64,000 nucleotides of DNA from Candidatus Equadaptatus faecalis (GCA_018065065.1 JAGHTZ010000023.1:2552-66551); one strand, 5' to 3'; positions 1,862-18,074 are shown, counted from the first letter of the stretch. Made by a program: numbers and translations. The notes: generated by a model from the sequence alone, not told the origin.

Positions 1862-1905
1862 AGTCTCGTGTTACAGATGATTCTTATCGACAGGAGTGAG
1901 ACTGT

Positions 1906-2931
1906 ATGTTTAAGAGCGTAAGCGTGAAAAATTTTGGAGCGTTAAAAGAGGTATCTTGGAGAAGATTAAGCAGCATAAATCTTGTTTTGGGAGAAAACGG
2001 TACAGGCAAGAGTTTTTTGCTGAAAGCTATGTATGTTGCTTTACGCACGTGTGAGGCATATAAACGCGGCAATGACAAAAGAGATTTTGGCGACATACTG
2101 TCAGATAAGTTGTATTGGACATTTCAGGCAGAGAAGATTGGGGATATAGCAACAAAGAGTAAAGATAAAAAAGACAGCCTGAATTTTTGCGCAGCGATAG
2201 ACGAAAGTACAAAGTTATCATATTCTTTTGGCCGTGATACAGAAAAACAAATTAAAAACATTTCGGGCATTCCGTCTGTAAATAGATCTGCAGAATCGAT
2301 TTTTCTCCCTGCAAAAGAAGTTGTTTCTTTACAAAAAGTCATAATAAAATCACGGGAACAGGACAGACTGTTCGGTTTTGACAACACCTATTATGATTTA
2401 GCCCGTGCTTTGAATAATCCGACGATGCGCGGGCGCTCGTCTGACAGAGTAGCAGATGCCAGGAGCCACCTTGAGGATATGCTTGGCGGCAGACTTGAAA
2501 AAGATGAGGATACACAGAGTTGGTATTTTAAGGATCAAAACGCCAAAAAGTTTTTAATCGGTGTTGTTGCCGAAGGAGTAAAAAAAGTTTCGATTTTAGA
2601 TATATTGCTTGGTAACAGATATTTATCTCCTGAATCTGTCGTTTTTATAGACGAGCCAGAGTCAGCGTTGCACCCTGCGGCGATTTCAAAGTTTATGGAT
2701 ATAATTTACGAGTTGTCGCTCACCGGCATGCAGTTTATTATGGCAACACATTCCTATTTTGTCCTTAAAAAACTTTATCTGCTGGCGACAGAACATCAGT
2801 GCAGTATTCCGGTTCTTTCTTTAGGCAGAGAAAGACATGATACGTATGATTTGAAAGACAGTTTGCCGGATAATCCAATTGTAGCTGAGTCAATCAAATT
2901 GTACGAACAAGAGGTCGACCTTGTGCTATGA
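1906..2931 (+). CDS. ABC-type (AAA15/AAA21-like) ATPase, candidate defence component
   Basis: Walker A is GENGTGKS, Walker B/D-loop is VVFIDEPESALHP and the H-loop is MATHS. An AGGAG-like RBS precedes the ATG. The region is AT-rich. Confidence 0.75.
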   Translation: MFKSVSVKNFGALKEVSWRRLSSINLVLGENGTGKSFLLKAMYVALRTCEAYKRGNDKRDFGDILSDKLYWTFQAEKIGDIATKSKDKKDSLNFCAAIDESTKLSYSFGRDTEKQIKNISGIPSVNRSAESIFLPAKEVVSLQKVIIKSREQDRLFGFDNTYYDLARALNNPTMRGRSSDRVADARSHLEDMLGGRLEKDEDTQSWYFKDQNAKKFLIGVVAEGVKKVSILDILLGNRYLSPESVVFIDEPESALHPAAISKFMDIIYELSLTGMQFIMATHSYFVLKKLYLLATEHQCSIPVLSLGRERHDTYDLKDSLPDNPIVAESIKLYEQEVDLVL

Positions 2932-3431
2932 GAGGTGTGCGTACAATAGAAGAATCGGGAATGCATTTTATATGCCCTGAAAATGGTAGTTTCGAAATTG
3001 AAAAATATACACAAACGTCAAAAGTTCACCACGTGCGCTCGGTAGAATTTTTGTTGAAGCGCAATGGCGCAGTGTTGTTTATTGAAGCCAAAAGCAGTAT
3101 TCCCGGAACAGACGGAGAAGGGTTTCAGGAATATATTGCTGCAGTGACAGAAAAATTTATACATTCCCTTGGAATGTACGTTGCTGTATTGTTGAAGAGA
3201 AGAAAAGTTACAGGAGAATGGGAATTACCGGATAGTTTAAAGCAAGTTGATTTAAGCACTGTTCAGTGCAAATTTGTCCTTGTTGTGAATGGCGCCAGTC
3301 CTAATATATTGTTAAATGTTGAAGATGCTCTTCGGACATCAATGTATCCTGTACAGCAAATTGCAAAGTTTGAAAGCCATCCGATAGCAATAGATGACGT
3401 GAAAGCAAGGCAGAAAGGTTTGATTGTATAA
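2928..3431 (+). CDS. Small hypothetical protein with a PD-(D/E)xK-like motif (possible minimal nuclease)
   Basis: Its start overlaps the ATPase stop (ATGA). The segment VEFLLKRNGAVLFIEAKSS has the acidic residue plus ExK spacing typical of restriction-endonuclease-fold and DUF4263-like cores. The call rests on this motif only. Confidence 0.45.
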   Translation: MRGVRTIEESGMHFICPENGSFEIEKYTQTSKVHHVRSVEFLLKRNGAVLFIEAKSSIPGTDGEGFQEYIAAVTEKFIHSLGMYVAVLLKRRKVTGEWELPDSLKQVDLSTVQCKFVLVVNGASPNILLNVEDALRTSMYPVQQIAKFESHPIAIDDVKARQKGLIV

Positions 3432-3491
3432 TATAAGCGAGTGTCTGCATATACAGATACAAAAATATGACGATGAGAAGTGAAATGAAGA

Positions 3492-4874
3492 ATGTCTATA
3501 AATGAATTAAAACCAACCACGGAGAATATCGCGGAGTGCTTTGTAAAAGATATAGTTAGAAGACAGGAAGCAGTCCTTGGTTTTGTTGATGTGTTGGATG
3601 CTACGTCAAAGCACTCAATTGCAGTAGACGGACGATGGGGAAGCGGCAAAACCTTCTTTGTTAAGCAGACGAAATTGTTGCTTGACATTTGCAACAAACA
3701 GGTAAGCAAAGTTGAGTTGTCGGAAAATATCTTGTTTGACCTTAATGGAGTAATATATAAGCATTGCCACCCCAATCCAGGTATAGTTGACGCAGAATGG
3801 AAGCCAATGTTTTCAGTATATTACGACGCTTGGACAAATGATAACGATATAGATCCTCTGATATCAATAATTTATTGCATAGCAAAAGGCATCAATGAAG
3901 AAAACTGTCTGAAAACAACTCAGGTTAATTATCTCAGATCTGCTGCCGATATAATTAAATGCGTTCAAGGGTGGAGTGTCGGTGAACTGCTCAATGTTTT
4001 TAATACAGAAGACCCCTTGTCTGCAATAAAAAGTCAAAAAAGTTTAGAGGAACGAATTAATGAATTTTTGGGAATAATTACAAATGAACGGGGCGAGAAG
4101 ATAGTTATATTTATAGATGAACTGGACAGATGTAAACCAAGTTTTGCCGTGAAACTGCTTGAAAGAGTGAAACACTATTTTGATAATGAAAGAGTAATTT
4201 TTGTTTTTTCCACAAATCTTGAGCAACTTCAGCATACAGTCAAAAAATTCTACGGCATTGATTTTGATGCAACTCGCTATTTAAACAGATTTTTTGATTA
4301 TGTTTTTGAATTGCCGGAAGCAGATATGGAAAACTATCTTTATACACTGCAAAGAGAAGTAAAGTATGATTATGATTTTATCGGCAGTGAGATAATGAAG
4401 ATGTATAATTTGACATTGAGAGATGTTGCTCAATATTACAGAATGTTAAAATTTGCTTTTGATCCTGCTCAATTAAAAACGGGATTAAAACCGTGGGCAG
4501 AAAAGAAAACTGTGCGTATGGCTGTTTCGGTCTTTTTGCCGATATTGTTTGTTCTGCGTATGACGGATAATAGTGCATATAATGACTTTATAAACGGCAA
4601 ATCTGCGGAGTATTTTGAAAAGCTTATCTGCTCTAAAAAACTTAAATCACGTGCGCGTACAATATTTTGTGCAGGCAGTATGGGAAATGACAGCGATGAG
4701 GATTTAAAAAATATTGTTCGTGATGTGTATTCGGCAGTGTTTATTGAGAGATATGAAGATATAAAAGAACAGTATCTGACTAACTCTTTTGTGTTTACGC
4801 AAAATACAAAAGAATGTATATTTGATATTATCTCAGGACTGTCTCTTGATAAGAATATTGCGTTATTGGAATAG
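3492..4874 (+). CDS. KAP-family P-loop NTPase
   Basis: It has the diagnostic DGRWGSGKTFF Walker A and the IVIFIDELDRC Walker B. A hydrophobic segment, VSVFLPILFVL, lies in the C-terminal half. Confidence 0.8.
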   Translation: MSINELKPTTENIAECFVKDIVRRQEAVLGFVDVLDATSKHSIAVDGRWGSGKTFFVKQTKLLLDICNKQVSKVELSENILFDLNGVIYKHCHPNPGIVDAEWKPMFSVYYDAWTNDNDIDPLISIIYCIAKGINEENCLKTTQVNYLRSAADIIKCVQGWSVGELLNVFNTEDPLSAIKSQKSLEERINEFLGIITNERGEKIVIFIDELDRCKPSFAVKLLERVKHYFDNERVIFVFSTNLEQLQHTVKKFYGIDFDATRYLNRFFDYVFELPEADMENYLYTLQREVKYDYDFIGSEIMKMYNLTLRDVAQYYRMLKFAFDPAQLKTGLKPWAEKKTVRMAVSVFLPILFVLRMTDNSAYNDFINGKSAEYFEKLICSKKLKSRARTIFCAGSMGNDSDEDLKNIVRDVYSAVFIERYEDIKEQYLTNSFVFTQNTKECIFDIISGLSLDKNIALLE

Positions 4875-5278
4875 AGCGTTCAAGCAAAGAGCCGCGTAGC
4901 AAACGAAATTTAATGTTATACAGGAAAAAAGAACATAAATGTTGTCGCGCGTAAGTTTTTATTTACGATACAATGGTTTTAATGCTATCATGGTATTGTG
5001 TTTGGGCATGGCTTTTTGTGTTACATGTCAGAAAAAGCGCAAATGCTCTGCCTGCTGTCAAACGACAAAATGACAGCGGAATAGTAGGAGAAGATTATTG
5101 AAAAAATCTTTAAAAAATAATAACCTTGGATAATAGATATACGGGACAATACTTTGAACTGTACGACGTAACAGATTTGTAAATGATAGAAGCTACCTAT
5201 TTGCTGAGTACGTTGTGGGATAAAAATGTTAATTGAATCTGTGGTCGTTAAAATAAGTAGGAGTGGAGGTCTGTTACT

Positions 5279-6907
5279 ATGGGAATAATAAAAGTAACTG
5301 AAATGCAGATTAATGAATTTAGAATTTTTAGAGATGTAAATATAAAGTTTGGTAAGATGATAACGGCAATTGCAGGTAGCAACGGAACTGGAAAGTCTAC
5401 GTTGCTAGCGTTGTTGGGTAACACGATGGAGTATAGACGGACTTCTTCAAAAACAACATATTTCAAACCTAAGCGTTATAGAACAGAGTTTAGTGAAATT
5501 ATCCATGGTTCCTTAACTTATGACAAACACGGTAGTAATTTGTTAAAAGTCAGTTTTGACGATGGCGACTATAGGATTTGTAGAACCACGTGGCAAACTG
5601 ATAAGGAAGCTCCTGGCGGTAAGCGTTTTAGAGTTATACCAGAAGTAAAGATTAATACTGAGACAGGGGCTAAAAAAAGCTCAAAGAAGAAAGAGATTCC
5701 TGTTGTATATTTAGGACTCTCAAGACTATATCCTATAGGAGAATCTCAAAAAGTTACGCCACATAGTATTACTTTGTCAGATATTGACCAAGAGGGTATC
5801 GAATGGATAAAGTCGAAAGCCAAAGATATACTGTACATGTTCAATAACGATAACATAAATGGGGTTACTAAAATAGACCTTGGTGATGTTGAGCATAAGA
5901 CAGGAATTGGATTTAACACGGAAAATTATGACTATATTACTAATTCAGCTGGGCAGGATAATGTTGGACAGATCCTTTCCGCTCTATGGAAGTTTAAGGC
6001 GCTACGAGATGAGCTGATGGAAGAATACCACGGCGGGGTTTTGCTGATAGATGAGATAGATGCAACATTACACCCTGCATCGCAGAAAAAATTGTTAAGT
6101 GTGTTGATAGATGCCGCAAGGCACTTTGAGATACAAGTTATTTTTACTGTGCATAGTCTTTCGGTAATAGAAGATTTGATTGAAAAATCACAACATGTCA
6201 ATGATAACATAGTGTTAAATTATCTGACAAACGCTAATGGAATGTTTGAAGTTTTCTTACAACCAACAATATCTCAGATAAAAAATGAACTTAATGCATC
6301 AATTACTCCATATGGACGTCAAATTAAATTATATACTGAGGATGCTGAAGCAAGATGGATGTTGAAAAAACTCTTATCTAAATTTGGGACGGAGTATACA
6401 AGTAGCGTTCGCATAGTTGACGATATGTGTTGCGGCAATACATTCCTCATATCGCTATATAAAGTTGATAAACCAGTATTTTCAGATGTTATTACAGTTT
6501 TGGATGGAGATAGTGTAGATGATTTGCGTAAAGCAGGGATAGATAACGATAACCCTCATTTTATGGTCTTGCCTATCGAAGGTAAGAGTCCTGAGAGTGT
6601 GTTGTTAGATTTTTTGATTGACGAACTTGAGCCCGAGTCAGATTTCTTTGCACAAAGTTGTGTAAGAGAAACTGGTTTTATAAAACAGAATCTTCGTGCT
6701 ATAAGAGATGACTTAGAAAGAGGTATTTATCCTAAGAGGGATATACTAAAAAAGTGGTTTAACAATACGAAGTCGATAATGGAAGATAGCCATCTATTCG
6801 ATTTTTGGTATGAGGCACATCAAAACGATGTTGTTAGATTCAAAGAAAAATTCACAAAATGTTTTAATATGTTGGCAAAAAATCTTAGAGTTAGAGTGAT
6901 AAAGTGA
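5279..6907 (+). CDS. OLD-like fused ABC ATPase plus putative TOPRIM/DUF4435-like domain
   Basis: Walker A is GSNGTGKST, the signature-like motif is SAGQDNV, Walker B is VLLIDEIDATLHP and the H-loop is TVHS. The C-terminal part has IKLYTEDAEARW (a conserved Glu) and ITVLDGDS (a DxD motif) as in TOPRIM. A strong RBS, AGGAGTGGAGG, precedes the start. Confidence 0.7.
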   Translation: MGIIKVTEMQINEFRIFRDVNIKFGKMITAIAGSNGTGKSTLLALLGNTMEYRRTSSKTTYFKPKRYRTEFSEIIHGSLTYDKHGSNLLKVSFDDGDYRICRTTWQTDKEAPGGKRFRVIPEVKINTETGAKKSSKKKEIPVVYLGLSRLYPIGESQKVTPHSITLSDIDQEGIEWIKSKAKDILYMFNNDNINGVTKIDLGDVEHKTGIGFNTENYDYITNSAGQDNVGQILSALWKFKALRDELMEEYHGGVLLIDEIDATLHPASQKKLLSVLIDAARHFEIQVIFTVHSLSVIEDLIEKSQHVNDNIVLNYLTNANGMFEVFLQPTISQIKNELNASITPYGRQIKLYTEDAEARWMLKKLLSKFGTEYTSSVRIVDDMCCGNTFLISLYKVDKPVFSDVITVLDGDSVDDLRKAGIDNDNPHFMVLPIEGKSPESVLLDFLIDELEPESDFFAQSCVRETGFIKQNLRAIRDDLERGIYPKRDILKKWFNNTKSIMEDSHLFDFWYEAHQNDVVRFKEKFTKCFNMLAKNLRVRVIK

Positions 6908-7812
6908 TGCACTATACGCCGCTGCGCTATCCCGGAGGAAAAGCAAAATTATACAAATTCTTCTGTGGACTAATTGAAAATAATTTTACTGATGCACCAA
7001 ACTATGCAGAGCCTTATGCTGGTGGTGCAGGTTTGGCGTTGGCGTTACTCATGACGGGAAAAGTCAAGAAGATATATATAAATGACATTGACAGAGCTAT
7101 ATATGCTTTTTGGTATACACTACTGAATGAAACGGACAGGCTTATTGATAAAATAAAGACAGTAAATGTATCTCTTGAAGAATGGGACAAGCAACACCTT
7201 ATACAGGGAAATAAAGAAACTGCAGACATTTTCGATTTAGGTTTTTCAACATTTTTCCTAAATCGTACAAACAGGTCAGGTATCATAAAGGGTGGAATGA
7301 TTGGTGGCAGAGGGCAAAATGGTGTGTGGAAATTGGACGCACGGTTTAACAAGACAAATTTAATAAGCCGTATCAAGGCTATTGCTGACTATAGGCTGTA
7401 TATTAATATCAGTAACATAGATGCGTTGCAATTTTTGCGTAATATGGGCAATACTGGCACAATGAACACGTTATACTATTTAGACCCGCCATATATAAAG
7501 AAGGCCACTGGATTATATTCACACTCTTATGGTGATGCAGACCATATAAAAGTTGCAAAAACAGTAAAAACATTAGACGCTAAGTGGATTGTTTCTTATG
7601 ATGCAGAGAATATTGTTGAGAAACTTTATTCAGGGTATCGCCAAATCACATATGACTTGGGGTATTCAGCAAGAACTGCGCGAACAGGAAGAGAATTTAT
7701 GGCATTTTCAGTGGACTTGAAGATACCCGAAGAGATACAACAGGCAAAGAAAAATATCTCTATCCCTAATATGAGCAATATAATTTTCTGCAACTTAAAT
7801 AATATGATATAA
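6904..7812 (+). CDS. Dam-family (D12 class) N6-adenine DNA methyltransferase
   Basis: Motifs present are LRYPGGKAKL, EPYAGGAGLAL (AdoMet binding) and YYLDPPY (catalytic DPPY). ATG 6907 overlaps the TGA of the upstream ATPase (TGATG). Confidence 0.85.
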   Translation: MMHYTPLRYPGGKAKLYKFFCGLIENNFTDAPNYAEPYAGGAGLALALLMTGKVKKIYINDIDRAIYAFWYTLLNETDRLIDKIKTVNVSLEEWDKQHLIQGNKETADIFDLGFSTFFLNRTNRSGIIKGGMIGGRGQNGVWKLDARFNKTNLISRIKAIADYRLYINISNIDALQFLRNMGNTGTMNTLYYLDPPYIKKATGLYSHSYGDADHIKVAKTVKTLDAKWIVSYDAENIVEKLYSGYRQITYDLGYSARTARTGREFMAFSVDLKIPEEIQQAKKNISIPNMSNIIFCNLNNMI

Positions 7813-7850
7813 AGCGGGTTGAAATTTAAATTTAGTGAAGGTATGATAAG

Positions 7851-8708
7851 ATGATACAAAAACTTGATTTGTTTGCAAAAATGTATGAAGAAGCAATTAA
7901 TAAAGGAGATGTTAACATTGCCAGAATACACGAAGAATTGTTCAGTAGAGAACTCGAACATATTTTGTTAAATTACAACCCTAATGATATAGTTGAAAGT
8001 TTTATAGATATTATAAAACCTAAAACATTTCCTACTATTTCTGTTAAAAAAAATGAGATATTTTATCGTGCACGCAGGGGGCACGATACAGTAAGTGGCG
8101 CTATTGATGATTGTGATGGGACTTTTGTAATGCCACACCATGCGCACGATATTGAAAAAGTACCGCCTATGTTAGCACCAGGTGGGCGATTTAATAGGTC
8201 TGGTACATCCTTTTTATATATAGCATCTGATGTTCATACGGCTATAGCTGAAGTGCATGCACAGGTTGGCGAAATTTGTAGCATTGGAACATTTTGCTGT
8301 AAAAAAGATATAACACTTATTAATTTATCTGATAAAGCGAAATCACCCAAAATAAACTTGTGGTGTAATGTTATATTACAACCTATATATCCAGAGAAAT
8401 TGCATATATATAAACTGACACAATTTGTTACAGATGTATTTGTCCAGTCCGGAATGAGAGGATTTTATTTTAACAGTGTACAGACAGATACTGGAAAGAA
8501 TGTGGTTTGTTTTGCTAACGATGTTTTCGAGTTAGAAAAATACAGTGAAAAACTGTATTACATAAAAAAGGTTAGTTATGCTATTGAAGAATATAAAGAT
8601 TGGACTGAAAAAATAGACGTGAAATTGCTTAATTCGTATAATAGTGAAGAAGATGAAGAAAGAGATAGAAAAATAGATTATTTAGCAACTTTGGTAAAAA
8701 ACAAATGA
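7851..8708 (+). CDS. RES-domain protein (NAD+-targeting toxin family) with an N-terminal extension of about 70 aa
   Basis: The R-E-S signature is present: FYRARRG, GGRFNRSGTSFLYIASDVHTAIAEV and GFYFNSVQTDTGKNVVCF. No Xre-type antitoxin ORF lies upstream. Confidence 0.75.
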   Translation: MIQKLDLFAKMYEEAINKGDVNIARIHEELFSRELEHILLNYNPNDIVESFIDIIKPKTFPTISVKKNEIFYRARRGHDTVSGAIDDCDGTFVMPHHAHDIEKVPPMLAPGGRFNRSGTSFLYIASDVHTAIAEVHAQVGEICSIGTFCCKKDITLINLSDKAKSPKINLWCNVILQPIYPEKLHIYKLTQFVTDVFVQSGMRGFYFNSVQTDTGKNVVCFANDVFELEKYSEKLYYIKKVSYAIEEYKDWTEKIDVKLLNSYNSEEDEERDRKIDYLATLVKNK

Positions 8709-8773
8709 TATTGGCAGAAACGGAAGAACAGCAGAAAAAAATCATTGAAACTATAAAAGCCTGTTTTGAATAA
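8705..8773 (+). pseudogene. Remnant 3-prime end of an aminotransferase gene (right copy of the direct repeat, 8720-8773)
   Basis: It translates as MILAETEEQQKKIIETIKACFE*, compared with ...NKMTEEQQEKIIEVIKKCFD* at 1745-1798. Its TAA overlaps the ATG of the sugar transferase (TAATG), as expected for an ancestral coupled junction. Confidence 0.7.
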
Positions 8774-9486
8774 TGGAAAGAAAGATTACTTTTTACGAAA
8801 AATATGTGAAGCGGCCGATGGACTTCTGCCTTGCATTAGGTGCAATCATAGGCTTAAGCCCAGTTCTGCTTATCACCGCGTATCTGGTGAAAAAGAAACT
8901 CGGCTCTCCCGTATTGTTCAAACAGCCGAGACCGGGCAGAAACGAAAAAATATTCAACCTTTACAAATTCCGCACCATGACGGACGAACGCGATGAAAAC
9001 GGCAATCTTCTGCCCGACGACGTCAGACTTACGGACTTTGGAAAAAAACTTCGCGCCACCTCGCTTGACGAGCTGCCGGAGCTTATAAACATACTAAAAG
9101 GCGACATGGCAGTTGTAGGTCCCCGTCCCCTGCTTGTCAGGGATATGCTCTTTATGACTGACGGACAGAGAAAACGTCACAGTGTGCGTCCGGGGCTTTC
9201 GGGGCTTGCGCAGGTAAACGGAAGAAACAACGTTACTTGGGAAGAAAAACTTGCATGGGACTTGAAATATCTTAAAGGCATCACCTTTTGCGGTGACTGG
9301 AAAATAATTGGCGTCACTTTCAAAAAGGCGTTTGCGAGAGAAGGCATAAACACGGACGGAATGGACACGGCGGAAGACCTTGGCGACTGCCTGCTTCGTG
9401 AGGGTAAAATTACGCAGCAGGAATACGATGAAAAAATGTCTGTTGCCAAAATGATGTTAATGCAATTTGAGAACGGGAGAGTTTAA
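8773..9486 (+). CDS. Undecaprenyl-phosphate sugar phosphotransferase (small PglC/WbaP C-terminal-type bacterial sugar transferase)
   Basis: An N-terminal re-entrant helix is followed by PVLFKQPRPGRNEKIFNLYKFRTM and LDELPELINILKGDMAVVGPRP. Confidence 0.85.
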   Translation: MERKITFYEKYVKRPMDFCLALGAIIGLSPVLLITAYLVKKKLGSPVLFKQPRPGRNEKIFNLYKFRTMTDERDENGNLLPDDVRLTDFGKKLRATSLDELPELINILKGDMAVVGPRPLLVRDMLFMTDGQRKRHSVRPGLSGLAQVNGRNNVTWEEKLAWDLKYLKGITFCGDWKIIGVTFKKAFAREGINTDGMDTAEDLGDCLLREGKITQQEYDEKMSVAKMMLMQFENGRV

Positions 9487-15405: not shown

Positions 15406-16074
15406 GTGTCACAAAACATTATGTGGTTAACGAGGAGAGGATTCATTTTGAACAAAAAACTTTACGATAACATATATATGATATTTGTGATATATGTTAT
15501 AGCGTGCGTGAGTATTATTGCGTTTATTGTTTGGGGTTATGCGAATATTTATTATACACCTTGGGATACATATTTTCGAAGTAGTATAGGTGGGATATTA
15601 GGTGGTATAGGTGCATTACTTGCTGTCTATATTACGGTAAATAGTAATATCTATATACAAGAGCGAAATCGCAAAGAAGCAGATTTAAGGCTGAAAGAGG
15701 AAATTCAAAAAAGAGAATTGGGTGAAAAGAAAATATTAGTGGAAAAGCTTCGTAGAGATATATGTGAATATATTGTACACATAGCTGATTATCATTACGA
15801 TCAAAACGTTGTTGAGAATATTCATAATATCAGTGATACTACAAGAAATAATAAACTTGTAGCAAATGCATTGTATTTTAGCTTATTAAGCACTTTTGAT
15901 GATTTAGAAAATGCGGCAAATCTTGTAAGAATAATGAAAAAAATACACAATAATGCTGGACGAATGATAAATGGGGATATGAACTGGATTGATGCCGAGT
16001 CAATTAACTTTATGGAGGCGTTTGCAGATTTTTCGAAATGTTTTGTTGCAGATAATATAAAAACATGGAGTTGA
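15406..16074 (+). CDS. Hypothetical membrane protein: 2 predicted TM helices plus a charged/coiled helical C-terminal domain
   Basis: The hydrophobic helices are IYMIFVIYVIACVSIIAFIVWGY and IGGILGGIGALLAVYITV, followed by a KE-rich segment. The likely start is TTG 15448, after the RBS GAGGAGAGG. The gene is very AT-rich. Confidence 0.55.
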   Translation: MSQNIMWLTRRGFILNKKLYDNIYMIFVIYVIACVSIIAFIVWGYANIYYTPWDTYFRSSIGGILGGIGALLAVYITVNSNIYIQERNRKEADLRLKEEIQKRELGEKKILVEKLRRDICEYIVHIADYHYDQNVVENIHNISDTTRNNKLVANALYFSLLSTFDDLENAANLVRIMKKIHNNAGRMINGDMNWIDAESINFMEAFADFSKCFVADNIKTWS

Positions 16075-16103
16075 TATTATTAGTTTAAGAAACAAATGTA
16101 TGG

Positions 16104-17189
16104 TTGCCTAATATGAGAAAAATTTATTGTACTGACAAATATAAAGCTTATCAAAAGAATCGACAAAAAGATGAGTTATTGTATAGCAGGAGAAAGCATA
16201 TAGCTAATAATAAGTACAATCAGTATATTGAAAAGCAAAGATTAGCTGCAAAAATTAAATATAAAGCATCAAAAGTTAAATGTGATGATGAGAAACAAAA
16301 CCGTGTTAAACTAGATGCACCCGCAAATTTTTCATTAAAGGAAAATACTGCGGAGGTCTTGTTGTTCCTTAGTGGTCTGATTCATTATATAAATACGCGG
16401 CAACCAATTTATCTTAACTTAAAAGACGTTAATAACGTAGCAGTGGATACCTTATTAGCCATAGTTGCAATTTTTGATGCCAGGAATATTAGAGATGTAA
16501 GAGGTAACTATCCGGATGACAGAAATGCATACAGGTTAATCAAGGATTATGGTTTTTTTGATGCAATACATGCAAAATCTATATTAGATGTACATTCTAT
16601 GGATAGAAATATATTTTCAATTAAGTCTGGGACGAAGGCTGATTCAGGTATTGTAGATGAGATAGTGGATTTTGTTAATCTTGACAATATAACATACATG
16701 ATTGTAAAAAAAATGATATATGCAACGCTATTGGAAATTATTGGTAATGCCAACGAGCATGCATATAGTAGTGGTAATATATTTGGTTTGAAAAAAAATT
16801 GGTATTTGTGTGTGCATAAAACAGATTCATCGATTTTATTTACTGTTTTGGATAATGGGTTTGGCATAGTTAGAACCATCAAAAGAAAAACATCCGAAAG
16901 GGCAAAAGAAATATTTAGCATTGTTAGATATTTTGACAAGATTCAAGATACTGATTTGCTCAAAGCAGCGTTTGTAGAGTCTGGTCGCAGTGAAAGTGGA
17001 CATAGATACAGAGGCAAAGGACTCCCTACAATTTATAGGAGAAGTATTGTTAATGGTCAATTTACTGATTTTACGGTTATATCAAATAAGGCAATGTTAA
17101 ACATTGCAATGGATGGAACAATTATTCCAACAAACTTGACTGAGAGTTTTAATGGGACATTATTCTCATGGAAAATAATACTAAATTGA
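16104..17189 (+). CDS. GHKL-superfamily (HATPase_c-like) ATP-binding protein
   Basis: The N-box is LLEIIGNANEHAY, G1 is VLDNGFGI, G2 is YRGKGLPTI and the C-terminal motif is NGTLFSWKI. A basic N-terminal region of about 200 aa precedes these motifs. ATG 16113 is an alternative start. Confidence 0.65.
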   Translation: MPNMRKIYCTDKYKAYQKNRQKDELLYSRRKHIANNKYNQYIEKQRLAAKIKYKASKVKCDDEKQNRVKLDAPANFSLKENTAEVLLFLSGLIHYINTRQPIYLNLKDVNNVAVDTLLAIVAIFDARNIRDVRGNYPDDRNAYRLIKDYGFFDAIHAKSILDVHSMDRNIFSIKSGTKADSGIVDEIVDFVNLDNITYMIVKKMIYATLLEIIGNANEHAYSSGNIFGLKKNWYLCVHKTDSSILFTVLDNGFGIVRTIKRKTSERAKEIFSIVRYFDKIQDTDLLKAAFVESGRSESGHRYRGKGLPTIYRRSIVNGQFTDFTVISNKAMLNIAMDGTIIPTNLTESFNGTLFSWKIILN

Positions 17190-17194
17190 AATAG

Positions 17195-17530
17195 GTGATA
17201 ACAATGGTTGAAACAAAAATGATTAACATTGCTAAAGATTATACGGTAACACCTGGCTTTAGACTTAAATCACAGGGGGAGTACTCTGGAGAGGATTTCA
17301 GAATTAAGTTTTTGGAACCGATTTTTGAAAAAAATCCAGATTCTTTGGTAGTAGTGAATTTAGATGGAGTAAAAGGGTATGCGATATCATTTTTAGAAGA
17401 AGCATTTGGTGGCTTAGCTAGAAAATTTACTGAGATTGATTTTAATGAGCATATTAAAATAATATCTACTGAGGAACCGTATCTTGTTGATGATATCAGA
17501 GGATATATTCAAAATGCGAAAAATTGCTAA
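17195..17530 (+). CDS. STAS-like DUF4325-family protein
   Basis: GEYSGEDFRIKFLEPIF...LVVVNLDGVKGYAISFLEEAFGGL matches the pattern I recall for DUF4325 (an SFldEaFg motif). The gene lies 5 bp after the GHKL gene. Confidence 0.6.
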   Translation: MITMVETKMINIAKDYTVTPGFRLKSQGEYSGEDFRIKFLEPIFEKNPDSLVVVNLDGVKGYAISFLEEAFGGLARKFTEIDFNEHIKIISTEEPYLVDDIRGYIQNAKNC

Positions 17531-18074
17531 AACATACATACGCATAGGTTTACCTTTATTAACTATAACTATTTGTGCGGCTATATCATGGCGCAATTTG
17601 GAGGGATGTCGTTTTTGGGATATCACCTGTTCCACAATATTGAATATAATCTTTTTAGGTGGTTTTGTGGTATGGTTTACGCATATTAATAATATGTCTG
17701 TGCGTAGAATAGAGTTAATGTGTCAAAATATTGAACACCTTAAAACTAAGTATTTACAGATTCAGGACTTGATGTTAAAGGAAAGTTGCGATAGCAATAT
17801 TAACAGAACAACAACACAAAATGCTGTATACTTATTAAAAAGTGCGTATATATATAAACAATGTCTTTTTGCGTTGATTAGCAAAGAATCAAGTAGTGAT
17901 ATTATTGTACAATATATGGACGATGTTGAGAAACATCATACAGGATTGAGAAATTACATTGACATATATGAGGACATTAAAGATGATAAACGGAGAGAAA
18001 TTAATAACAAAATTGTTAAACATATTGTAAATATAATTAATGATGTTGATTTTATAAAGTTAAATATGTTCTAA
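17484..18074 (+). CDS. Hypothetical membrane protein: 2 predicted TM helices plus a helical C-terminal domain
   Basis: The TM helices are IGLPLLTITICAAISW and ILNIIFLGGFVVWFTHI. The likely start is ATG 17514, which overlaps the end of the DUF4325 gene. The architecture resembles the 15406-16074 product. Confidence 0.5.
   Translation: MLMISEDIFKMRKIAKTYIRIGLPLLTITICAAISWRNLEGCRFWDITCSTILNIIFLGGFVVWFTHINNMSVRRIELMCQNIEHLKTKYLQIQDLMLKESCDSNINRTTTQNAVYLLKSAYIYKQCLFALISKESSSDIIVQYMDDVEKHHTGLRNYIDIYEDIKDDKRREINNKIVKHIVNIINDVDFIKLNMF

Follow-up and report, generated by a model that had tools for sequence, protein, structure and literature searches.

A 64,000-nucleotide stretch of Candidatus Equadaptatus faecalis DNA (GCA_018065065.1 JAGHTZ010000023.1:2552-66551), referred to here in its whole length as the window, carries a gene for an ABC ATPase with a C-terminal TOPRIM-like domain that runs directly into a gene for a small D12-class DNA methylase. 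The ATPase and methylase genes form an obligately linked, co-diverging unit. We give about half of our credence to the reading that this unit is a modification-linked defence module acting in the manner of restriction-modification (R-M) systems, a sister of the PD-lambda-5 system in which a TOPRIM effector of the HEC-04/OLD-like kind replaces the ParB/HEPN protein. The genes and domains concerned are given below with the evidence for each in brackets (HMM, hidden Markov model).

5279-6907, plus strand: ATPase with a C-terminal TOPRIM-like domain, 542 amino acids (Pfam, PADLOC, homologues, fold match)
5279-6220, plus strand: ABC ATPase head, approximately residues 1-314 (Pfam AAA_15, AAA_21, AAA_23 and SMC_N; conserved residues)
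6317-6628, plus strand: TOPRIM-like core, approximately residues 347-450 (invariant residues, domain model, HEC-04 HMM)
6629-6904, plus strand: C-terminal helical bundle, residues 451-542 (secondary structure of both models)
6907-7812, plus strand: α-class (D12) methylase, 301 amino acids, or 302 from an alternative GTG start at 6904 (PADLOC, Pfam)
7851-8708, plus strand: RES-domain gene, 285 amino acids (Pfam RES, 5e-13)

An initial annotation of this DNA had described three open reading frames (ORFs) with a set of diagnostic motifs, and all of them were found in the translations: GSNGTGKST, NSAGQDNV, LLIDEIDATLHP, TVHS, LYTEDAEARW and VLDGDS in the ATPase, and YPGGK, EPYAGGAG and DPPY in the methylase. 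The best Pfam families were AAA_15 (6e-15, with AAA_21 and AAA_23) for the ATPase and MethyltransfD12 (8e-21) for the methylase. As had also been described, the ATPase TGA (6905-6907) overlaps the methylase ATG (6907-6909), with one base in common (TGATG, AAAGTGATGCAC). The RES-domain gene follows 38 nt downstream of the methylase stop. The methylase gene is translationally coupled to the ATPase gene. Full-length homologues of the ATPase number more than 1000 (36-48% identity), and an alignment of 40 family members shows no variation in the quoted ATPase motifs; the ORFs are real genes and not chance ORFs.

Coupling to a methylase in other genomes, on which the initial annotation had staked its proposal, was borne out by a scan seeded with an alignment of 40 ATPase homologues. 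Taking one genome per species, the scan gave 80 loci that span Bacillota, Actinomycetota, Fusobacteria, Elusimicrobia, Melainabacteria, Chloroflexota, Kiritimatiellae, Bacteroidota, Leptospirae and Pseudomonadota. A methylase homologue (33-50% identity) was present in 73 of the 80 loci, and the seven methylase-free cases consist of four at contig ends and the three most distant homologues (~31% identity). By ORF calling and clustering, the methylase directly adjoins the ATPase gene in the same direction in 66 loci, 45 times downstream and 21 times upstream; the distance between the genes ranges from -47 to 143 bp. Over 63 pairs, divergence of the ATPase correlated with that of the methylase (r = 0.82 for pairwise distances), the maximum of 999 permutations being 0.17. 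Even plasmid-borne ATPase homologues at 26-28% identity (Psychrobacter, Bacillus toyonensis) adjoin a gene annotated as DNA adenine methylase, once divergently. The distant homologues at ~31% identity, from Sulfurovaceae, Methanolobus and Owenweeksia, lack a neighbouring methylase, and their best PADLOC match, HEC-04, is equally weak; they may mark the border between stand-alone and methylase-dependent clades.

On the Psychrobacter plasmid pVan23-1 (3465-5233), the annotation divides the ATPase homologue between two ORFs, one named 'ATP-binding protein' and the other, of 156 residues and spanning the TOPRIM-like part, 'hypothetical protein'; the DNA adenine methylase comes next. Either a frameshift accounts for this arrangement, or the protein is naturally split in the manner of AriA and AriB.

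No helicase, reverse transcriptase or DUF4435 gene was conserved beside the ATPase in the 80 loci. The initial annotation had held that none of the four described gene contexts of OLD enzymes, which are solitary, UvrD-linked (Gabija), retron-linked and split as in PARIS, applies to the window gene, and with a D12 methylase as the neighbour in 66 of 80 loci this view holds. The sole other recurrent neighbour was a protein of ~480 amino acids that matches PD-Lambda-5_A (PADLOC, 3e-54), found in 10 loci.

To view the linkage from the methylase side, an alignment of the methylase was run against metagenome and IMG/VR contigs, which gave 160 loci. Counted over about 157 of them, the partners were as follows.

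ParB/HEPN protein only: 73 loci
ATPase only: 53 loci
both ParB/HEPN protein and ATPase: at least 10 loci
methylase at a contig end: 15 loci
neither partner: ~5 loci

Among the IMG/VR methylase loci, 46 of 79 carry the ATPase-methylase pair. The few partnerless methylases adjoin unrelated defence-like genes (PLD-ResIII, KAP, HerA), and a consistent third type of partner was therefore rejected. On a neighbour-joining tree of 133 methylases the partner type switches at least 9 times, compared with ~32 switches for shuffled labels. Methylases from different partner classes have a mean identity of 47%, equal to that within the ParB/HEPN class, and no column of the methylase alignment discriminates between the classes. 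We infer that there is one methylase family, probably with one mark, and two effectors that appear to be interchangeable. In the window itself, PD-Lambda-5_A had no match among the island proteins, and a ParB/HEPN partner elsewhere was ruled out with an HMM built from verified neighbours, which matched 0 of 413 window ORFs.

The methylase belongs to the family that accompanies the ParB/HEPN protein in PD-lambda-5. Its best PADLOC model is PD-Lambda-5_B (PDLC04018, 1e-113), aligned over residues 3-283 to model positions 4-284 of 291, and the general type II methylase model (MTase_II) matches at 4e-100. The FxGxG motif (E35, G39, G40) and D193-P194-P195-Y196 are invariant in the family. The most conserved block, with 20 of 45 columns at ≥90%, is formed by residues 106-150, where Dam-type enzymes (EcoDam, T4 Dam) have the hairpin (TRD) that contacts DNA. 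The initial designation of the protein as 'Dam-family' holds for its fold class, but the N6-methyladenine (m6A) mark named with it is an assumption. The NCBIfam dam model gives 51 bits, below its cut-off of 114.85. The closest solved structures are M.CbeI (7M6B, 3e-34), DpnM (1e-13) and EcoDam (2e-8). M.CbeI, which is annotated as D12 and bears DPPY, makes N4-methylcytosine (m4C) at GGCC (PMC8616854, PMC3425538). It shares only 27% identity with the window methylase, so neither base can be inferred for the latter, and the database label 'DNA adenine methylase' for the family, PD-lambda-5 included, may name the wrong base.

The ATPase head is intact. Walker A (G33-K39), the signature (S223-G225-Q226), Walker B (D258-E259) and the H-loop (H292) are composed of residues that are invariant or ≥90% conserved among the 40 homologues, and the head has PDB profile matches to PtuA, Thermus OLD (6p74) and AriA. 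The C-terminal region has its own set of family invariants, E354, D355, E357, D409-G410-D411, P432 and P438-E439, with a spacing of 55 residues from E354 to the DxD motif. AlphaFold models were obtained for the full-length protein (predicted local distance difference test score, pLDDT, of 87) and for the C-terminal domain alone (pLDDT 92). In both models the elements follow in the order β1-α-β2-α-β3-α-β4-α, which is the TOPRIM arrangement, before the helical bundle; E354 closes β1, D409-G410-D411 closes β3, and helix 4 begins with P438-E439. The OLD-like architecture proposed for the 542-residue protein, an ABC head followed by a C-terminal E/DxD domain, was recovered in the fold comparison, in which the top PDB match of the full-length model was Thermus OLD 6p74 (E 1e-11, 525 aligned columns). 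The next matches were the retron Eco8 effector and GajA, with alignments that reach through the C-terminal region, and matches to ATPases that lack a TOPRIM domain had shorter alignments.

By profile, the protein stands apart from the described families. The best PADLOC match was HEC-04 (7e-23, 79 bits), with residues 141-468 as the best stretch against model positions 129-426 of 494, followed by the ATPase-Toprim effector of retron I-B (3e-19); AbiLi matched the head at 8e-15, and Old was not among the best PADLOC matches. The C-terminal 232 residues alone matched the HEC-04 HMM at 2.4e-5. An HMMER search with the C-terminal profile gave no bridge to annotated TOPRIM families, the best 150 matches all being of the protein's own family, and the domain taken alone comprises 886 clusters at 50% identity. 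The protein is thus OLD-like in architecture and closest to HEC-04/IbfA, and by profile is a member of neither family. The initial assignment of a TOPRIM domain is supported by motifs, spacing and modelled topology but not by a significant fold match of the isolated domain; with the weak HMM match, the motifs and topology make a TOPRIM domain likely, and the protein a putative effector nuclease.

Several lines of evidence place the pair in a defence setting. In E. coli FDAARGOS_1285 it lies between the P2-type replication endonuclease gene (gpA) and the portal gene (methylase WP_001581117, ATPase WP_001581118), in the slot that old and tin occupy in phage P2. This P2 position is a defence hotspot (Rousset et al.; Vassallo et al., PMC9519451). 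A second E. coli version lies directly after a phiNP-type integrase, and the two versions occur in 15 and 85, respectively, of 5426 complete genomes, annotated merely as 'AAA family ATPase | DNA adenine methylase'. In Citrobacter phage phiNP (OR565852) there is an unannotated methylase gene at 4001-4810, beside an annotated 'AAA family ATPase' at the end of the record; its translation is a full-length homologue at 48% identity. The table of P2-hotspot loci of Rousset et al. (2022) already contains the entry 'MethyltransfD12 + AAA_15/AAA_21, WP_001581117 + WP_001581118', and we found no sign of the pair among the systems tested in that study. A literature search with the E. coli protein accessions gave nothing, and no paper naming or characterising the pair was found, although the ABC-ATPase classification of Krishnan et al. 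(2020) might mention it. The pair is therefore recurrent and unnamed, catalogued already but not studied, and not categorically new. Of the new methylase-coupled architecture proposed initially, the coupling is real, but the methylase is of the known PD-Lambda-5_B family and the pair had already been tabulated. PADLOC, which the initial annotation had proposed to run, thus identified the methylase firmly and the ATPase just as a distant HEC-04 relative, and gave no match for the RES protein.

By its sequences the pair appears to be a variant of PD-lambda-5 with a HEC-04/OLD-like effector. PD-lambda-5 is a two-gene system of E. coli ECOR7, a ParB/HEPN protein with a methyltransferase, that was obtained by functional selection, affected nearly every phage tested, required an mrr-deleted host for cloning and was termed a compacted 'RM+Abi' system by Vassallo et al. 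(PMC9519451). The need for an mrr-deleted host shows only that the DNA modification of PD-lambda-5 is active. Both are two-gene operons with a PD-Lambda-5_B methylase, located in P2-type prophage hotspots and defence islands; the methylases of both contexts intermix on the tree, with all conserved columns in common, and at least 10 loci carry the three genes side by side. The partner in the window is, however, of the ABC-ATPase/TOPRIM-like and not the ParB/HEPN kind, and defence, which is validated for PD-lambda-5, is predicted for the pair. On the effector side the nearest relative is HEC-04, a single-gene ABC-ATPase-TOPRIM defence system that is toxic when induced and loses defence in a Walker A mutant and in E319A/D375A/D377A (Payne et al. 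2024, preprint 10.1101/2024.01.29.577857), together with its homologue IbfA of IncI1 plasmids, described as an abortive-infection factor (PMC12111858). Like these, the window protein is one polypeptide in which an ABC ATPase head is followed by an E...DxD domain at the C-terminus, and by HMM coordinates E354 and D409/D411 probably fall within a residue or two of E319 and D375/D377. It nevertheless represents a separate family, as it scores only 79 bits against the 494-position model, and its clade is obligately methylase-linked whereas HEC-04 and IbfA act alone.

With OLD nucleases the protein shares the N-terminal ABC ATPase, the likely C-terminal TOPRIM domain, the best full-length fold matches and the spacing of 55 residues from E to DxD found in Burkholderia (Bp) OLD, in which E400 and D455 lie in a two-domain C-terminal region with a helical domain (PMC6755086); the helical domain is in the same place here. 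It differs in having no profile match to the OLD TOPRIM domain. The AbiLi/AbiLii and RloA/RloB proteins are likewise similar, in that the ATPase head matches AbiLi, the best viral fold match is RloB-like (weakly), and these proteins are associated with DNA modification genes, often in type I R-M loci; the window protein, however, has both parts in a single chain, and its partner is a small D12 methylase on its own, not a full type I system. Type II R-M systems (CbeI/M.CbeI, DpnII) offer the parallel of a small α-class methylase coupled in translation to the gene of a putative nuclease, which is not seen without its methylase, and the methylase itself is close to this group by its MTase_II match and its nearest structure. 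The difference lies in the putative nuclease, which has an ABC ATPase and a TOPRIM-type site in place of PD-(D/E)xK or HNH, and in the DNA-contact block of the methylase, which is conserved across the family and does not vary with specificity. Overall, the pair is in keeping with a known pattern, in which modification systems have ABC-ATPase/TOPRIM modules attached to them.

In the R-M-like reading, the methylase would mark host DNA, probably at one and the same target throughout the family, and the ATPase-TOPRIM protein would load on or scan DNA by ATP binding or hydrolysis and cut unmarked DNA, that is, incoming phage or plasmid. The nuclease could then not be maintained without the methylase. 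Such action would explain why close nuclease homologues never occur without the methylase while the methylase is sometimes alone, and also the strict selection on methylase catalysis. Nuclease activity, protection by methylation, the mark itself (m6A or m4C) and the anti-phage function of the pair are all predictions from sequence. A broader proposal, which we advance tentatively and rate as somewhat improbable, is a hitherto unrecognised ATP-dependent restriction class with one fixed-specificity α-class mark, in which ABC-ATPase/TOPRIM and ParB/HEPN effectors, unrelated in structure, are interchangeable or act together; this would make the ATPase the first TOPRIM-based, methylation-gated restriction enzyme, and PD-lambda-5 the other arm of the class. 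Should the R-M-like reading be correct, the enzymes that read DNA methylation to tell self from non-self would gain a nuclease fold new to them, a TOPRIM domain powered by an ABC ATPase, and the PD-lambda-5 methylase would be a hub for interchangeable effectors, which would explain the 'RM+Abi' description. Annotation tools give the genes generic labels or a weak HEC-04 match, so that the pair is missed and counts of orphan methylases are possibly distorted. The native E. coli copies make the pair directly testable.

A number of observations weigh against the R-M-like reading. Stand-alone ATPase-TOPRIM relatives (HEC-04, IbfA and the distant homologues at ~31% identity) work or exist without a methylase, and the ancestral mode was therefore not methylation-dependent restriction. 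A methylase that is guarded, or that serves as a protein antidote, would give the same linkage pattern. No sequence-reading domain was identified in the ATPase protein, and the nearest solved relative of the methylase makes m4C, so that the predicted mark may be either m6A or m4C. The assignment of the nuclease domain also met with negative results. Foldseek comparison of the isolated C-terminal domain with PDB and BFVD gave nothing below E 0.06: the best PDB match had E 0.13, retron Eco2 0.5 and the C-terminal region of Xanthomonas OLD (6njx) 1.1, and the best viral match in BFVD, at E 0.07 and a probability of 0.63, was to a protein resembling RloB, a member of the TOPRIM-like clan. Neither a Pfam scan of the C-terminal 232 residues up to E 10 nor a PDB search with a sequence profile of the C-terminal region (E 10) gave a match, and in hhalign comparisons with P2 Old the full-length profile aligned over the ATPase only and the C-terminal profile not at all.

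The linkage could also reflect a guard arrangement, in which the ATPase-TOPRIM protein is a suicide effector of the PARIS/PrrC kind that is checked by, or watches, the methylase or its methylation. OLD-type ABC ATPases that come with a TOPRIM partner are often sensors and suicide effectors on PARIS, BREX-linked and type I R-M-linked modules (PMC12839542, PMC9122126). The toxicity of HEC-04 on induction, the abortive-infection role of IbfA and the ability of both to work without a methylase point the same way, as does the 'RM+Abi' label given to PD-lambda-5 by Vassallo et al. (PMC9519451); the loci, at least 10, with the ATPase beside a complete PD-lambda-5 fit a back-up role, and obligate linkage with co-divergence suits a protein-protein partnership equally well. 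We nonetheless consider a guard arrangement, the strongest of the rivals, rather unlikely. No restriction component is present in 53 of 63 methylase-seeded and ~56 of 66 ATPase-seeded loci, and a phage has little cause to attack a lone methylase; moreover, the invariant catalytic motifs of the methylase indicate that catalysis and not merely binding is selected. Equally unlikely in our estimation is the trigger such a guard would respond to, a DNA mimic (Ocr or ArdA) or an S-adenosylmethionine (SAM)-degrading enzyme that disables the methylase and so unleashes indiscriminate nucleic-acid degradation and cell death, and no phage trigger is known. The invariant SAM-binding and DPPY motifs and the conserved DNA-contact block, which argue that DNA methylation matters, also speak against a toxin-antidote or addiction pair without DNA marking, in which the methylase would neutralise the nuclease by binding or regulation and the pair would chiefly stabilise its mobile element, with phage defence secondary. 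The translational coupling, the absence of close nuclease homologues without a methylase when the methylase is occasionally partnerless, and the location of the pair on prophages, plasmids and inserted cassettes would all suit addiction; the prophage defence hotspots and the validated sister PD-lambda-5 point to immunity, and we regard addiction as improbable.

Two further explanations have, in our view, very little chance of being right. One is mere juxtaposition of a HEC-04-like abortive-infection gene that acts by itself and an orphan methylase, epigenetic or element-protecting: phages often carry orphan D12 methylases, and proteins of the HEC-04/IbfA type function alone, but the genes adjoin in 66 of 80 loci, in both orders and in many phyla, with r = 0.82 and with the arrangement kept at 26-28% identity, and almost no methylase of the PD-Lambda-5_B family lacks one of the two partner types. 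The other, put forward in the initial annotation and to our minds just as remote, is a three-gene hybrid in which the RES protein is a back-up effector that depletes nicotinamide adenine dinucleotide (NAD+). The three genes are co-directional and closely spaced, lie between two relics of a DegT-type aminotransferase gene, apparently having arrived as one cassette, and the RES catalytic residues are conserved (R113/R116, E134 and S209 in 21 homologues). A RES family HMM, however, found 0 homologues among the 2349 ORFs of 240 loci with the ATPase and/or the methylase, RES homologues elsewhere are solitary, a promoter-like site (7819-7847) lies directly upstream of the RES gene (a consensus match only; promoter and terminator scans gave no excess over shuffled expectation), and PADLOC has no match for the protein.

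Because it is absent from the 240 related loci and its homologues are solitary in unrelated contexts, the RES gene does not belong to the unit, contrary to the initial proposal. It is a separate single-gene element that shares the inserted cassette, an instance of co-transport and not of conserved partnership. The protein is identical to a deposited 'RES family NAD+ phosphorylase [Synergistaceae bacterium]', and its homologues form about 20 clusters. The closest named homologue, in C. difficile (5001-5885; 141 contigs), is solitary in a Tn916-like conjugative element, in its leading or transfer region, immediately behind the anti-restriction gene ardA and before tcpE/virB4. On another contig (L086, 3943-6262) the homologue lies between fragments of 346 and 92 amino acids that both match Peptidase_M42, as if inserted into or beside a peptidase gene. 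Like RES-Xre pairs (MbcTA, ParST), the window gene encodes a RES domain with the conserved Arg/Glu/Ser set, but the protein exceeds theirs in size, with extensions at both termini, and NCBIfam Res_ParT_toxin scores 17.6 bits against a cut-off of 110. No adjacent ORF of the Xre/DUF2384 antitoxin type was found between 7812 and 8773, or beside the C. difficile and L086 homologues.

The pair lies in a small defence island. The low-GC tract at ~1900-8750 (33-40% G+C) is set within a polysaccharide-synthesis locus of 44-49% G+C, and a HEC-02 pair and a KAP-family NTPase precede the ATPase gene on the same strand. Defence is validated for the published representative of HEC-02 (10.1101/2024.01.29.577857). 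The other features of the island are as follows.

1906-2931, plus strand: HEC-02-like ABC ATPase (PADLOC HEC-02A, 4e-141)
2928-3431, plus strand: NERD-like partner of the HEC-02 ATPase, overlapping it (PADLOC HEC-02B, 3e-39)
3492-4874, plus strand: KAP-family P-loop NTPase (PADLOC candidate PDC-S20, 2e-50; weaker likeness to PifA and QatA)
5046-5108, plus strand: degenerate 3' relic of a DegT-type aminotransferase gene, the left cassette edge (71% identical to 1718-1780)
8720-8786, plus strand: second DegT 3' relic, the right cassette edge, which abuts the sugar-transferase start at 8773 (76% identical to 1745-1811)

A three-way alignment showed that the end of the DegT aminotransferase gene (the last 65-95 nt, 1718-1811) recurs at 5046-5108 and 8720-8786 in the same orientation, and the relic at 8720-8786 encodes an in-frame DegT-like C-terminus (AETEEQQKKIIETIKACFE and stop). 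Because this gene end recurs before each, the island consists of two stacked cassettes, one with HEC-02 and the KAP NTPase and one with the ATPase, methylase and RES genes. The triple gene end looks like a recombination hotspot for defence cargo. No tRNA or Rfam features were found near the island, and the gene order is identical on an independent assembly.

A second low-GC patch lies in the polysaccharide locus at 15406-18074 (31% G+C) and contains four co-directional ORFs of 222, 361, 111 and 196 amino acids. None of the four has a PADLOC match; one carries a STAS-like DUF4325 domain (Pfam, 3e-13).

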